A DNA stretch of 63,984 nt, filler included, from Acidimicrobiia bacterium (GTDB taxonomy: Bacteria > Actinomycetota > Acidimicrobiia > Spongiisociales > CAZKJJ01), in the NCBI GenBank assembly GCA_046759765.1. It is 8 parts of 8 records of this genome, joined end to end, with 100 filler letters (N's around TTAATTAATTAA, not from the genome) between each part and the next. Parts side by side here need not be neighbours in the genome. Positions count along the whole stretch, not along the records: positions 9,045 to 17,798 come from JBHICV010000103.1; 7 more parts are not named here. One strand, 5' to 3'. Every line of letters starts with the position of its first letter. The first letter of the stretch is position 1. Shown here one piece after another: positions 8,945 to 17,687 of the stretch. Both the position numbers and the translations under genes were made by a program. The notes beneath the pieces are model-generated. The model was not told the DNA's origin. It did not search any database and saw only the letters and a list, made by a program, of their open reading frames with translations.

Positions 8945-9044
8945 NNNNNNNNNNNNNNNNNNNNNNNNNNNNNNNNNNNNNNNNNNNNTTAATTAATTAA
9001 NNNNNNNNNNNNNNNNNNNNNNNNNNNNNNNNNNNNNNNNNNNN
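8945..9044. other. Artificial contig linker
   Basis: N run + TTAATTAATTAA + N run. Confidence 0.99.
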
Positions 9045-11964: not shown

Positions 11965-12669
11965 CTACCCGGCTGCCGCTTTCTTTCGAAGCGCGCGGGT
12001 GGGCTCAGTCCAGGTCTGGCGTGCTAAATCGAAGGCTTCCTCGGCAGTGAGGATGGCGATGTTGGGCAGATTCTCCAGGGCTTGCTCGGCGATCTCTCGG
12101 GAGGTAAAGAAGAGCATCGAGCTGCAGACCTCTGACTGGGGACCGACCACGGGCTGATCGTCCCCGGTCTCGGTGGGGTTCCTCCCGGGCACGAAGACAG
12201 AAGTCACCGCGGAAGGTGGGTCTACTTCAACGACTTCGTCGGCTGTGACGGTAAGCCGTATGGTGCCTCCTGTCACCGTGTCCGTCGATTCGATCTCCCC
12301 TGTGGTCTCCAGGACTCCTGGCAGCAGGATCGTGTCCAAGGAGCACCATGCGTAGAGGTCGTTGCCGTTGATCCGGATGCGGTGTCGGGTTGGCTTGAGG
12401 GTGAGGGCCATTCCGATGAAATCGCCGTTGTCGTTGAGCTGTCCGCCCGCCGCGTCGATCGCTTCGAAAAGGTCGTCGATCTTCTGTCTCGGGAGGCCGA
12501 GGAGCTCAGACGCCCGTTGCCGTGAGACAGGCTGGCCCTTTGACAGCTCCTCCAGAAGCCCGATTTGCATCAGGGGCGAGGTGTCCACACCGGCAGCTTC
12601 GTGCTTGGTCGCGACTCTCGCCGTCCACGCCGCGGCTACTTCTTCGGTGGATGGTCTCGACACCGTCAC
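11965..12669 (-). CDS. merB: Organomercurial (alkylmercury) lyase family protein
   Basis: N-terminal HTH-like part; LTLKPTRH; YAWCSLD (catalytic Cys/Asp); second Cys in VCSSMLFFTS. Confidence 0.88.
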   Translation of the reverse strand: MTVSRPSTEEVAAAWTARVATKHEAAGVDTSPLMQIGLLEELSKGQPVSRQRASELLGLPRQKIDDLFEAIDAAGGQLNDNGDFIGMALTLKPTRHRIRINGNDLYAWCSLDTILLPGVLETTGEIESTDTVTGGTIRLTVTADEVVEVDPPSAVTSVFVPGRNPTETGDDQPVVGPQSEVCSSMLFFTSREIAEQALENLPNIAILTAEEAFDLARQTWTEPTRALRKKAAAG

Positions 12670-12785: not shown

Positions 12786-13184
12786 TCAGTCTGGCGAGAT
12801 GATGGGACAGATCAACCCGGGGCTGCAATCCCCCGGGCTCAGCCGCTCGGCTCTCTCGGCCAGTCGGTGAAGTTCCTTCTTGATGTTGCGAAGAGCTTGC
12901 ATCCGCTCGTCAATCTCCGTGAGCTTTCTCTCGACGAGGTCAGCGACATGTCTACATGGTGCCTCGCCGCCGTCCCGGATATCAAAGACGGCTCGCACCT
13001 CCTTGAGGGTTAGCCCGGCTCGTTGGGCTGAGCGGACGAAGCCGAGTCGTTTAGCGGCCTTTTCGTCGTAATCGCGGTACCCCGAAGGCGTGCGATCGGG
13101 TGGGGGAAGGACGCCAACGTCCTCGTAAAACCGGATGGTTTTGGCAGGCACTCCCGTTTCGGCGGCCAGTTGCCCGATTCTCAC
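12786..13184 (-). CDS. MerR family heavy-metal-responsive regulator
   Basis: MRIGQLA..TIRFYE..RTPSGYRDY HTH; APC and C-x5-CPI metal ligands; GTG 13184. Confidence 0.93.
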   Translation of the reverse strand: MRIGQLAAETGVPAKTIRFYEDVGVLPPPDRTPSGYRDYDEKAAKRLGFVRSAQRAGLTLKEVRAVFDIRDGGEAPCRHVADLVERKLTEIDERMQALRNIKKELHRLAERAERLSPGDCSPGLICPIISPD

Positions 13185-13190
13185 GAGGAG

Positions 13191-13222
13191 ATCACCTTCC
13201 ATTCCGCTGGAAGGTATATAGT
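13191..13222 (+). promoter_or_regulatory. MerR-type operator and long-spacer promoter
   Basis: ACCTTCCA-n6-TGGAAGGT (13194-13215) lying between ATCACC and TATAGT, spacer 20 nt. Confidence 0.75.
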
Positions 13223-13247
13223 AGCGCAACTTTGTGAAGGGCCACAG

Positions 13248-13559
13248 GTGGAGGTCACGCTCCAATATTTCGACGACTGTGCCAACTGGAGGGTTGCGTT
13301 GAGCCGGCTGCAAGAGGTCCTGGGTAAGGACCACGAGATCGGTCTACAGCTGGTTGAGACGTTCGAAGACGCGGAGCGGCTGGGTTTCCGTGGCTCGCCC
13401 ACCGTGCTGATCGACGGAGCAGATCCTTTCGCCGACGCGTCGGCCCCGATCGGGTTCGCGTGTCGTGTGTATCGGACCGAGGGCGGAATGGACGGCGCCC
13501 CCTCCATCGAGCAGCTTCGGGATGCCCTGGGCAGGGACGCTGATCGAGGCTCACAGTGA
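13248..13559 (+). CDS. Thioredoxin-like mer-associated protein (YFxxC...FxGSPT...ACRVY family)
   Basis: Divergent from merR; motifs YFDDCANW, FRGSPTVLIDGADPF, ACRVY. Confidence 0.82.
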   Translation: MEVTLQYFDDCANWRVALSRLQEVLGKDHEIGLQLVETFEDAERLGFRGSPTVLIDGADPFADASAPIGFACRVYRTEGGMDGAPSIEQLRDALGRDADRGSQ

Positions 13560-13577: not shown

Positions 13578-14336
13578 TCAGCTCGTGCTGCTCACCACAC
13601 GCCACTGGCCCGGGCAACCCTCACAGTCCTGCCAGATCTGATCTGGCGGCTCGCCCCGCAGAAGACGCTCCGCCTCTTCGCGTAGCAGCACCCCGATCAG
13701 TTGTCCCTGAGGGTCGGTGACGATAACCAGCCTTGTTCCTCGTTTGGCCATCCGATCGACGAGAGGTTGGAGGAGACCGTTCGGTCGGACAGTGGTCGGA
13801 CCGAGCTCCATAACATCCCCCACTCGACTGTGCCCTTCGGTTTCCCAAGCATCGCTGCGGAGTCGGCCCAGGACCAGCGTGTCGCAGTCGATAACGACGC
13901 ACTCGTCCCACGCGGCGTCAAAGGTTCTACGCCTTACGTCACCGAGGAGCTCGCCCGGCGTACAAGTCGGGATATCGGGACGGGTCGAATCGCTTACCCG
14001 CTGTACGGCAGGAGCCTCGCCTTCAACCGGAAGCCCAGCAGCCTTCCAGTCGGCAATCCCTGCGACGTAGTCGTAGACCATTTCGAACCCAAGACTTTCG
14101 AGCCGGCACGCGGCTCGCGGAGACATGTCTCACAACCCATCATGTCAATAGACCACCACCGGCTTGTCATCCCGCAACACCGATACGGTCTCCACGCTGA
14201 GACGGCGCAGCGGGATGCTTATAGCCCCCGGGATATGCGACTCCGAGAATTCCCATTCAGGGAGGACATCGACAATCTGCGCATCCTCTTCCTCCGTGAG
14301 TCGAAGCAACTCCCTGCGGTCAATAGAGGTAACCAT
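13578..14336 (-). CDS. Rhodanese-CBS fusion selenoprotein with two in-frame UGA (VVVY-U-HDGL-U-DMSPRAA), 252 aa
   Basis: TGA at 14145-14147 and 14130-14132 join ORFs 14145..14336 and 13578..14126 in frame; SHIPGA and [13 protein letters not shown] rhodanese motifs flank them; CBS-like C-terminus; hairpin 14099-14117. Confidence 0.85.
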
Positions 14337-15244: not shown

Positions 15245-16003
15245 TCAGCAAACCTGGGGTGCGTTCTGGTCGACCACGGGTCTCCACATGGCAGCAGCGT
15301 CTTCGGCAACTCCGGCCACGGAGACGATCTCGCCGTCCAGCTGGTGGTCTTTTACCCATTCTTCGGCGGCATGGCGGCTGGTGAAGAAGTTGACCATCGG
15401 GCACCAGGTCTCTTTCAAGTTCACGTCTGCGTGACCATCAAGAATGAACAGCGTTGCATCTCCTTCCGGCTTGCCGTTGCGGAAGGTGATCTCGATCTGG
15501 TCGCCGGTGCCGGGATCGGTGGAGTGGACCGTCCCATCGCCTCCCAGGGCGCCCAGGATCCCGACGGCGTCAAGCGCGCACCATGCCCAGCGAGTGGCGC
15601 CTTCAATATGGATACGATGGCGGGTCGGCTCAATGGAAAGCCCCGCAATGCCCGTCAGACGACCTTCGGGGTCGAGCTCGACACGGCCTCGGGCTCCGGC
15701 CCGATTCATAACCTCGGCGAGAGTCGATCGATCGACACCAGCCGACGTCGCCCAGGTCCCCTGGTCCACCGGATGACCCTGCTCGAGAAGCAGTCGGAAG
15801 CCGGCGGATCGCAGTGCCGCCACCTCAGGTGAAACTTCCTCCTCGTGAAGCTCGGAGAGAGCCTCCGAGCCTTCGTACCCGTTCGCCGGGACAGAACAGC
15901 ACGACTCCAAGGCGCAGTGTGAATCTGACGAATGAGCAGTACTGGCGCGCGGGGCGCAGCAGCTCGCGGCCACGTTGGGGTTGTGGTAATGGGCGGTAGT
16001 CAT
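15245..16003 (-). CDS. merB: Second MerB-like lyase with Cys/His-rich N-terminal extension
   Basis: GLSIEPTRH, WAWCALD, WCPMVNFF; N-terminal SCC..HC..SCC; ATG 16003 after AAAGGA. Confidence 0.85.
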   Translation of the reverse strand: MTTAHYHNPNVAASCCAPRASTAHSSDSHCALESCCSVPANGYEGSEALSELHEEEVSPEVAALRSAGFRLLLEQGHPVDQGTWATSAGVDRSTLAEVMNRAGARGRVELDPEGRLTGIAGLSIEPTRHRIHIEGATRWAWCALDAVGILGALGGDGTVHSTDPGTGDQIEITFRNGKPEGDATLFILDGHADVNLKETWCPMVNFFTSRHAAEEWVKDHQLDGEIVSVAGVAEDAAAMWRPVVDQNAPQVC

Positions 16004-16066
16004 GATCAAAGGTCCTTTCTCGTCAGCAAACTGTGACATCCCGAACCAGAAGCGACGTTAACTCCA

Positions 16067-16133: not shown

Positions 16134-16514
16134 GTGTCAAAGGTTGGACAGATCACCTGCGAATGCGAGACCACCACCGCTTGCTGTGTGGCGCTCGAGG
16201 CCGAACCCATTGACGAACCCGTCGCCGAAGATCTAGCTGCCGGCTTCAAGGCACTCGGTGACCCCTATCGCGTGGCGATCGTTCATCTCATCTCCGGCGC
16301 CGCAGGACCGGTGTGCGTCGTAGACATCGAACGGCACCTGCCTCTTGCCCAATCCACGGTCAGTTATCACCTGAAGTCTCTGGTCAATGCTGGTGTGTTG
16401 GATCGGGAGCGTAGGGGCCGGTGGAGCTACTACACGGTCCGTCCCGAGCGGCTCGACACCCTCACCGAATCACTGGATAAGTACGCGCAGAGGATTAGCG
16501 CAAGCAGTTCTTGA
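16134..16514 (+). CDS. ArsR/SmtB family metalloregulator with N-terminal CxC..CC
   Basis: FKALGDP.R, VCVVD, QSTVSYHL, ERRGRWSYY. Confidence 0.93.
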   Translation: MSKVGQITCECETTTACCVALEAEPIDEPVAEDLAAGFKALGDPYRVAIVHLISGAAGPVCVVDIERHLPLAQSTVSYHLKSLVNAGVLDRERRGRWSYYTVRPERLDTLTESLDKYAQRISASSS

Positions 16515-16541
16515 CCTTCCAGCTGGTGGAACCCGTACGGT
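16511..16541 (+). promoter_or_regulatory. MerR-type promoter (19-nt spacer) upstream of the CcdA-like gene
   Basis: -35 TTGACC at 16511-16516, -10 TACGGT at 16536-16541, dyad (ACC)TTCCA-gctgg-TGGAA between them. Confidence 0.7.
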
Positions 16542-16574
16542 TGAGACGCTGACAGCCCGTACGGGTGATGATCG

Positions 16575-17405
16575 ATGGATGAGGTGACCGCTCGCCGAAG
16601 GGCTCGGGTCCGGTTCGGAGCGACAGCACTCGGTCTGGTCTTCGTCGGTGTGGCCGGATACTTGGGCTTCGTCGCCTTTGTGGGCTCTGGCCGCCAAGTG
16701 GCTGCGGGTGTGATGGTGCTGGCAGCAGTGACCGGGTTCGCTGCGTTTTTCTCGCCGTGTTCGTTCCCTCTGCTGCTGACATTCCTCGGCAGACGATCGA
16801 CCGAGTCACCTGGTGCGGCGCTGGCGAGCGCGCTGCGGGTCGCGGCCGGGGCCGCGTTGCTGCTCGGCGCCGTGGCCGCGGTCATTGCTTTGGGAGGGTC
16901 CGCCCTGGGCGGCGTCGTCGAGTTCGACAGCACCGTCGGGAGGCTGTTTCGGCTCGGCGTTGGGCTGTTGTTGGTGTTGTTCGGACTCCGTCAGGCGAGG
17001 CTGTGGGACGTGCGCATGCGGTGGCTGGATCGGATCGCCGGACTGTCGGCCCGGGTGTTTGATCCCGGGCGAGCCACCAATCCTGTCCGCAGTGACGTGG
17101 TGTATGGCCTTGGGTATCTGCTGGCCGGGTTCGGGTGAACCGGGCCGCTGCTCGCCGGTCTGGCAGCTCAAACCTTGACCGTGGGGGCGACGCAGACCGC
17201 CGCGGCCTTCACGGCCACCACCATCGTGTTCGCGCTGCTGCTAGTCGCCGCATCAGTCGTCGTGTCGACTGCCAGCAGCGAGGCTTTGCGCCCGGTCAGG
17301 ATGACCGGACCCGCAGTAAAACGATGGTCCGGCTACGTCCTTCTCGCTGTTGGTGCCTGGTTCATCGTCCTCGCCGCGTTACCCAGTCCGATCCTGGGGT
17401 CTTGA
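16575..17405 (+). CDS. CcdA/DsbD transmembrane-domain-like selenoprotein (SPC ... G-U-TGP), 276 aa
   Basis: FFSPCSFPLL first Cys; TGA 17136-17138 at the second-Cys position (GCTGP); in frame with ORF 17175..17405; SECIS-like hairpin 17147-17167. Confidence 0.85.
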
Positions 17406-17687
17406 CCTCCAATCCGATCCCAGGCATCGCCGAGTTCGCTGAGGTTCCTCACGCGCCTCGATCGAGTGAGTGGGCTGAGGCAAGACGCCGCTCCTTATGG
17501 AAGCGGACGGAGGACGGCTCGATATCGGCCCTCCTGGCTTCTTCGACTCTACGCATCTACCTGGAAGCAGGCCCCAACCGGTGAAAAGGACACCCGCTTA
17601 GGCACTGTCCAGCGCGCCTACCAACCTGAGTGACGTGGAGGCCACCGCGTCTGGCAGCCTCCACTGAGTCGGCTCGTTTCAATTTTC

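Follow-up and report, generated by a model that had tools for sequence, protein, structure and literature searches.

The 63,984-nt stretch of DNA considered here (the window) consists of joined contigs of one metagenome-assembled genome (MAG; 2.73 Mb, 308 contigs, 92% complete) of an Acidimicrobiia bacterium (GCA_046759765.1). At positions 16575–17405 of the plus strand it carries a gene for a predicted membrane protein of CcdA/DsbD type, in which an in-frame TGA very probably specifies selenocysteine (Sec). The gene lies on contig C103 (9045–17798), which is separated from C102 (1–8944) by N filler (8945–9044) and is followed by a further run of N from about 17799. As the N runs join separate contigs, gene order across the joints is without meaning.

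An open reading frame (ORF) of 187 codons extends over 16575–17138 (+) and terminates with TGA at 17136–17138. Reading through this codon extends the frame to another TGA at 17403–17405, for a product of 276 residues. The first 187 codons (16575–17135, +) encode an extra N-terminal transmembrane (TM) helix, TM1, TM2, TM3, a basic loop and the first half of TM4, and end in AGFG. The motif FFSPC in TM1 includes Cys62 (codon at 16758–16760, +; assigned from sequence and alignment). The TGA itself (17136–17138, +), read as Sec at residue 188, corresponds to Cys in Cys-type homologues and to the second Cys of CcdA. The in-frame continuation (17139–17405, +) begins TGPLLAGLA and, judged by frame, alignment and model, comprises the rest of TM4, TM5 and TM6 before the true stop. 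Just past the TGA is a hairpin, GCU(C)GCC paired with GGCAGC (17150–17167, +), that resembles a selenocysteine insertion sequence (SECIS); its loop GGUCU is at 17157–17161, and a conserved 5-bp core pairs 17152–17156 with 17162–17166. A first-pass annotation of the window had already pointed to several of these features, and they are present as described: FFSPCSFPLL (residues 58–67), GFG-TGA-TGPLLAG (TGA at 17136–17138), the hairpin GCTGCTCGCC-GGTCT-GGCAGC (17147–17167) and an in-frame downstream ORF of two TM helices, which in the model encodes the remainder of TM4 and two further helices, the frame being open to 17405.

As had also been predicted, standard annotation splits the gene. A word-indexed protein search listed 120 homologues, at least 105 of which stop exactly at AGFG, mostly with 187 residues (counted with an end-motif script), and at least 146 of 268 fetched homologous proteins end at the TGA column. 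Cluster representatives at 50% identity from an exhaustive search show that divergent clusters stop at the column as well, and that separately called C-terminal fragments begin just past it. In contrast to these truncated entries, all seven full-length homologues that were aligned have Cys at the TGA column.

At the DNA level, 52 genome loci were examined: the window's own, 12 found among 401 genomes of its class, and 39 taken from a genome collection. The motif around the column is found in 49, with TGA in 45 and TGC or TGT in four; L046, L052 and L068 lie outside the motif pattern and were left out of the genome-locus counts. Removal of identical copies leaves 43 unique loci, 40 Sec-type and three Cys-type. 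A metagenome scan kept 80 loci, of which 78 have the motif (L132 and L144 do not) and all 78 have TGA; 66 are new unique sequences. Neither TAA nor TAG occurs at the column in any motif-bearing genome or metagenome locus. Past the TGA, which is its sole interruption, the frame is open and conserved in every case, at identities as low as about 36% and also in contigs of Chloroflexota and Nitriliruptorales. Such recurrence of the in-frame TGA, with the hairpin covariation described below, goes well beyond coincidence. The first-pass annotation had placed Sec at the second catalytic Cys and proposed a survey of Cys versus UGA, naming a non-Cys column in homologues or two consistently separate genes elsewhere as grounds for doubt; the survey finds neither. 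Seven columns, P61, C62, G92, G108, R126, G137 and C188, are invariant in an alignment of 55 sequences that extends to identities as low as 25%.

A different possibility is that the UGA terminates, so that the locus holds two genes or a broken one, with a 187-residue protein and a separately started protein of 76 residues. This accords with the 187-residue product given by standard calls in the truncated entries, with an ORF starting at TTG (17175–17405) and with the lack of a tRNA-Sec in this assembly, discussed below. On the other hand, the stop is in frame and always TGA in 40 + 66 unique loci, the full-length homologues have Cys at this position, and termination would, in the model, cut TM4 in mid-helix. 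Termination appears very improbable, the more so in view of the hairpin and of the decoding of selD. Genome-wide reassignment of TGA is also rejected, as arsR and the Sec gene itself both terminate with TGA.

In a quick tree built without one short row, a single clade holds 40 Sec and 11 Cys forms, the Cys forms being nested among the Sec forms, and at least three switches between Sec and Cys are indicated. The same genome has a Cys-type paralogue (G000:C36:8092-8910, minus strand; L029) of about 45% identity with TGT at the column; it adjoins a MerR-family gene, 65% identical to that of the window, and a MerB-like gene. The idea that genomes with Cys forms lack Sec machinery was rejected: selB is above its cut-off in five of five genomes, including the Cys-form genomes G013 and G354. 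Acidimicrobiia-like copies are also binned in MAGs labelled Kiloniellales, Gammaproteobacteria, Boseongicola and Acidobacteria (L037, L039, L045, L053, L054, L056, L059; L038, L041, L043), and near-identical copies occur across differently labelled MAGs (L045/L056 and L059/L060). This suggests mis-binning or recent transfer.

At the RNA level, RNAalifold applied to the 40 Sec-type loci gives a 5-bp stem around an invariant loop GGUCU. Alignment pair 24–36 joins the third positions of a Leu and an Ala codon, both synonymous sites, and is found as GC in 13 loci, UA in 11, CG in 10, UG in one and unpaired in three. Its covariation score is 0.235, compared with 0.074 for shuffled alignments, and none of 500 shuffles reaches 0.235; shifting the partner by one to three columns lowers pairing from 86% to 16–48%. 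In L066 the stem is kept through a GUC/GAC change at the cost of two amino acid changes. For 64 of the new metagenome loci the sequence is long enough for this comparison; the loop reads GGTCT in every one, and all five pairs are present in 58. The Cys-type loci, with only three DNA sequences, retain three to four of the five pairs. A stem maintained by synonymous-site covariation is difficult to reconcile with termination at the UGA.

The published bacterial SECIS model specifies a loop of 3–9 nt with G at its first two positions, a stem of at least 4 bp, a distance of 16–37 nt from the UGA and a minimum free energy of −7.5 kcal/mol or lower (PMC13188914). The window hairpin is within all four constraints, with its GGUCU loop, conserved 5-bp stem, 18-nt spacing and −7.5 kcal/mol; the last value, computed for the mini-hairpin GCU(C)GCC-GGUCU-GGCAGC, only just reaches the model's limit. 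A scan of 16900–17450 against Rfam (E ≤ 10) gave chance-level matches only and no SECIS family. The predicted element resembles the SECIS of Escherichia coli fdhF in that GGUCU occupies nt 22–26 from the U of UGA in both and the loop is flanked by a short G+C stem, the window hairpin having a bulged 5′ pyrimidine. It differs in stem sequence, and its consensus loop is 5 nt, closed by a C–G pair. As loop and spacing are those of fdhF, E. coli may be a workable host for expressing the gene.

The genome encodes SelA (416 bits, cut-off 268), SelB (338, cut-off 242) and SelD (390, cut-off 125). The selD gene (G000:C108:6375-7298, minus strand; L017) is itself interrupted in frame by a TGA, at the canonical GAGUACK site, and SelD thus appears to be a selenoprotein in this genome. 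That the same genome appears to read UGA as Sec in selD is a further point against termination. Hairpins downstream of the selD TGA do not share the GGUCU spacing of the Sec gene, and a simple organism-specific SECIS rule was dropped on this account.

At the translated amino acid level, the family profile matches one solved structure only, the Thermus thermophilus CcdA 5VKV, over its whole length (E = 3e-8). FFSPC aligns with the first Cys of CcdA (Cys62) and G-[U/C]-TGP with the second (U188), and the CcdA/DsbD-like character proposed in the first-pass annotation is borne out by the alignment it called for, with both Cys columns aligned. Distant full-length relatives pass the DsbD_TM (PF02683) threshold, namely P0200 (40.6 bits), P0197 (36.5) and P0184 (35.1). 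An AlphaFold model (pLDDT 83.7) shows a six-helix core with an extra N-terminal helix, and 5VKV is its top Foldseek match (probability 1.00, TM-scores 0.45/0.53). Sequence comparison thus supports the window protein as a probable remote homologue of CcdA/DsbD_TM. By the positive-inside rule applied to the model, the N-terminus would be cytoplasmic and the C-terminus outside.

The genes around the Sec gene are of mercury and metal type. Directly upstream on the same strand is a gene for an ArsR/SmtB-family metalloregulator with a Cys-rich N-terminus (16134–16514, +), and divergent from it is one for a MerB-like alkylmercury lyase (15245–16039, −). At its N-terminus this MerB-like protein is extended by about 70 residues, among which Cys is abundant (SCC, CALESCC). 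A second MerB-like alkylmercury lyase (11965–12669, −) and a MerR-family heavy-metal regulator (12786–13334, −) are encoded on the same contig. The contig also has a rhodanese-CBS ORF (13578–14336, −) with two in-frame TGA codons, at 14145–14147 and 14130–14132; its active-site loop reads VVVY-U-HDGL-U, a UxxxxU motif as listed for the double selenoprotein TsoB. Its best NCBIfam match is the rhodanese part of TsoB, at 43 bits, far below the cut-off. As TsoB is described as a rhodanese/DsbD fusion, the rhodanese-CBS ORF may by analogy be functionally linked to the Sec gene. Directly downstream of the Sec gene in L033 lie a truncated rhodanese ORF and, after it, a CBS-like ORF.

The mercury-type setting recurs in other genomes. 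A tblastn search over the 43 unique genome loci found MerR-family neighbours in 23, MerA in five, MerB in seven and ArsR in four, with at least one of these in 27. The MerA neighbours in L034 and L050 are above the curated MerA cut-off, and a canonical MerA, which has a heavy-metal-associated (HMA) domain as well as a C-terminal CC pair, is encoded elsewhere in the genome of the window. Metagenome contigs from sediment and groundwater commonly carry the family, and its neighbours include merA, merB and merR. Fused HMA domains are detected by Pfam in three Sec-type truncated gene calls (P0148, P0149 and P0151), an HMA fusion can be read directly from the DNA of the Sec-type locus L028, and an N-terminal CxxC is present in nine Sec-type truncated calls overall.

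Other neighbours are of separate interest. The DF family (seleno)protein model NF049942 matches, at 46–70 bits with a cut-off of 70, a small protein beside the CcdA-like gene in four loci (L018:719-1135, minus strand; L059:5589-5903; L062:5711-6001; L063:5711-6001), with motifs FDGCP and GSPT. Its gene lies between a divergent merR-family gene and the CcdA-like gene in L059, L062 and L063, and just downstream in L018. Molybdopterin-oxidoreductase ORFs, split into short and long parts, are found downstream of the gene at L025:339-632 (−), L026:1191-1424 (−) and L026:4-1016 (−), and from their sequence would fit the pattern expected of a Sec-containing formate dehydrogenase.

Upstream of the Sec gene is a promoter-like element (16511–16541, +) that overlaps the arsR stop codon. 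It consists of TTGACC (16511–16516), a 19-nt spacer containing the dyad TTCCA-N5-TGGAA, and TACGGT (16536–16541). L038 and L039 share the element, with a compensatory change of the dyad to TTCAA/TTGAA. The MerR-type promoter with a 19-nt spacer named in the first-pass annotation thus stands as a layout, and one conserved in two other loci; the adjacent regulator, however, is ArsR-type and not MerR-type. A scan for sigma-70 consensus promoters found none, and as it covered spacers of 16–18 nt only, outside which a 19-nt spacer falls, the promoter remains a pattern. Also upstream of the Sec gene, within the 60 nt that separate it from arsR, are two copies of the palindrome CCGTACGG (16533–16540 and 16557–16564, +), 24 nt apart and the only two in the 64-kb window, which jointly can pair as a 10-bp stem. 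The palindromes are not conserved in L038 or L039. Possibly the pair is an operator or an RNA hairpin.

A role in the handling of mercury or another soft metal is probable from this gene context. The best explanation of the locus, and one we regard as modestly favoured, is a CcdA-fold selenoprotein whose Cys62/Sec188 pair relays Hg(II) or another soft metal. One gene (16575–17405) would encode a seven-helix membrane protein of 276 residues with the CcdA/DsbD fold, the UGA at 17136–17138 being decoded as Sec by SelB recruited to the hairpin. Cys62, at the break in TM1, and Sec188, in the middle of TM4, would be the counterparts of the membrane-embedded Cys residues of CcdA and would form a thiolate/selenolate pair in mid-membrane. 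The pair would bind Hg(II), another soft metal or an organomercurial at one membrane face, and CcdA-like alternating access would then hand the metal on to thiol- or selenol-bearing partners in the cytoplasm, for instance MerB, MerA by way of its HMA domain, or the fused HMA domains. Sec would supply a strongly thiophilic ligand of low pKa. Such a protein would be a functional analogue of MerT/MerC on a different fold. That the metal itself is relayed, rather than electrons or an exported ion, is a finely balanced matter and is put forward with some reserve.

Several observations weigh against this explanation or parts of it. No tRNA-Sec was found in this 92% complete assembly of 308 contigs with Rfam, ARAGORN or blastn: a search with RF01852 returned only tRNA-Leu and tRNA-Ser; whole-genome ARAGORN gave 43 tRNAs, none of them SeC; an odd ARAGORN call on C145, and the contigs bearing selA, selB and selD, had no Rfam match; and blastn with the tRNA-Sec of two relatives gave only chance matches of 14–18 nt. 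A tRNA-Sec is above the Rfam cut-off in five of five relatives tested, and in two of the three relatives whose loci were fetched it lies no more than about 700 nt from the end of a contig. An assembly gap is therefore the likely reason for its absence here. The sequence AGLA encoded under the hairpin is also conserved in the Cys forms, and part of the conservation is therefore that of the protein; only the synonymous-site signal is independent of it. The read-through product has no Pfam match at E ≤ 0.01, no DsbD_TM match at E ≤ 1 and no match to an NCBIfam release 20 model at E ≤ 0.01, and the Foldseek E-value for CcdA is no better than 0.055. On sequence criteria CcdA homology thus appears supported and formal PF02683 membership does not. 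As to function, 16 of the 43 unique loci, several of them short, have no mer-type neighbour. The MerR-family neighbours score about equally with the CadR, CueR, ZntR and MerR models, all below cut-off, so that the regulator does not identify the metal. A tblastn search with the window protein against 72,556 PLSDB plasmid records, where known plasmid-borne mer transport genes would lie, gave no match. Finally, the Hg–Se bond is very stable and could impede the release of the metal from a relay.

The main rival is a redox conduit, in which Cys62 and Sec188 would cycle between selenosulfide and reduced states and carry reducing equivalents across the membrane, for example for thiol or selenol proteins of metal defence. 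It accords with the alignment of the two residues to the Cys pair of CcdA. Fusions to AhpC/TSA- or thioredoxin-like domains occur in more distant relatives, the DF-family protein found beside the gene in L018, L059, L062 and L063 has DGCP and GSPT motifs that look thioredoxin-like in sequence, and the nearby UxxxxU rhodanese recalls the rhodanese/DsbD fusion described for TsoB. The close relatives, in contrast, are fused to HMA metal-binding domains and not to thioredoxin-like ones, the linked genes are merA, merB and merR, and a thioredoxin-type Pfam domain (E ≤ 1e-5) is found in none of the 142 nearest-neighbour ORFs. Three other DsbD_TM-type genes in the genome could fill housekeeping roles. 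Neither ResB nor ResC was found around the best canonical DsbD_TM paralogue (C4), so its surroundings do not mark it as the housekeeping CcdA. A redox conduit is accordingly considered unlikely.

Export or sequestration of a soft metal (Cu, Cd, Zn or Pb), controlled by an activator of the MerR family, is the lesser rival. Here a cytoplasmic N-terminal HMA domain would feed the Cys/Sec site, and the positive-inside reading of the model would place the fused HMA domains in the cytoplasm. The equal scores of the MerR-family neighbours to CadR/PbrR, CueR and ZntR models agree with such a role, as do weak NCBIfam matches to the ArsG efflux permease, of P0148 (16.7 bits) and of a DsbD_TM neighbour gene in L065 (26.2 bits). 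The presence of a true MerA directly adjoining the gene in L034 and L050, MerB in seven of 43 loci, and the absence of a P-type ATPase or other efflux component among the 142 neighbours speak against it, and efflux seems improbable. The first-pass annotation had left the protein as either a metal-inducible carrier or a reductant conduit; the context of ArsR, MerB, MerR, MerA and HMA fusions upholds the metal connection, and sequence does not settle the choice between the two roles.

Returning to the relay of Hg(II), a more specific and somewhat doubtful proposal is that, in Acidimicrobiia of sediments and in some Chloroflexota, the Sec/Cys gate takes up Hg(II) or methylmercury to supply MerA and MerB, and that together with the di-Sec rhodanese it forms a split counterpart of TsoB. 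If a selenolate/thiolate gate for Hg is real, microbial selenium use would be directly coupled to mercury detoxification. More generally, the family may link selenium availability to the detoxification of mercury and organomercurials.

These sequences apparently constitute a widespread and uncatalogued selenoprotein family in mercury-resistance loci of uncultured sediment actinobacteria, that is, a known fold with a new Sec variant in mercury-type loci. Among the 119 families of prokaryotic selenoproteins tabulated in a 2026 review (Table 1 of PMC13188914), none is a CcdA/DsbD_TM protein standing alone; TsoB and Sec-type MerT come nearest. A full-text literature search, outside whose coverage some possibly relevant recent surveys lie, found no report of a CcdA-like selenoprotein family, and the available part of the deep-Sep paper makes no mention of DsbD or CcdA. 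With at least 146 of 268 gene calls cut at the TGA, the whole family is on record as truncated hypothetical proteins, and one Sec-aware profile would repair hundreds of records. If confirmed, the family would represent a natural Sec-for-Cys swap inside the CcdA/DsbD membrane core, and the nested Cys forms offer a ready system for asking what selenium adds to a membrane thiol relay.

Among known systems, the window protein shares with CcdA/DsbD_TM proteins the aligned motifs SPC in TM1 and G-[U/C]-TGP in TM4 and, as far as the model shows, a six-helix core. It differs from CcdA in having a probable Sec at the second Cys and an extra N-terminal TM helix and in reaching no Pfam threshold; in place of nearby thioredoxin-like or cytochrome c maturation genes it has mer-type genes.

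A review (Tables 3–4 of PMC12195606) lists CcdA-domain proteins from the mer loci of actinomycetes under the annotation of mercury transporter, and its tables also include an ArsR-type mer repressor. The window protein is like those described there in its CcdA-type domain, actinobacterial host and ArsR-type repressor; the tables in the available part give no Sec codon for the CcdA-domain mercury transporters. As tblastn found no match in the PLSDB plasmids, the relation to CcdA-domain mer proteins, if any, is remote. To our knowledge, transport by CcdA-domain proteins of mer loci is an annotation and has not been demonstrated.

A Sec-containing MerT (“putative mercuric transport protein”, PF02411) and a MerT/CopZ fusion-like protein are predicted membrane selenoproteins of heavy-metal systems (PMC13188914). 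The present family resembles Sec-type MerT and the MerT/CopZ fusion (NF045683 in NCBIfam) in having HMA fusions. The fold and family are unrelated, with no match of the membrane part to PF02411 or NF045683; PF03203 likewise gave no match, and by sequence the protein thus does not belong to the mercury transporter families of mer operons (MerT/MerC/MerF/MerE/MerH). A distant relative, P0234, shows a weak N-terminal MerC match of 21.1 bits, below the cut-off.

TsoB (NF045694) is listed as a rhodanese/DsbD fusion-like selenoprotein with a UxxxxU motif (Table 1 of PMC13188914). The window protein has no NF045694 match at E ≤ 0.01 (curated cut-off 805 bits), the rhodanese and DsbD-like domains are separate genes in the window, and Sec is in the membrane core. 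The UxxxxU motif of the window belongs to the rhodanese loop, and the review credits TsoB with that motif alone. Both are nonetheless described or predicted as selenoproteins with a DsbD-like part, and NCBIfam also has an ArsR/SmtB-type regulator model, TsoR; the window, for its part, combines an ArsR regulator, a DsbD-like selenoprotein and, 2.2 kb away, a UxxxxU rhodanese.

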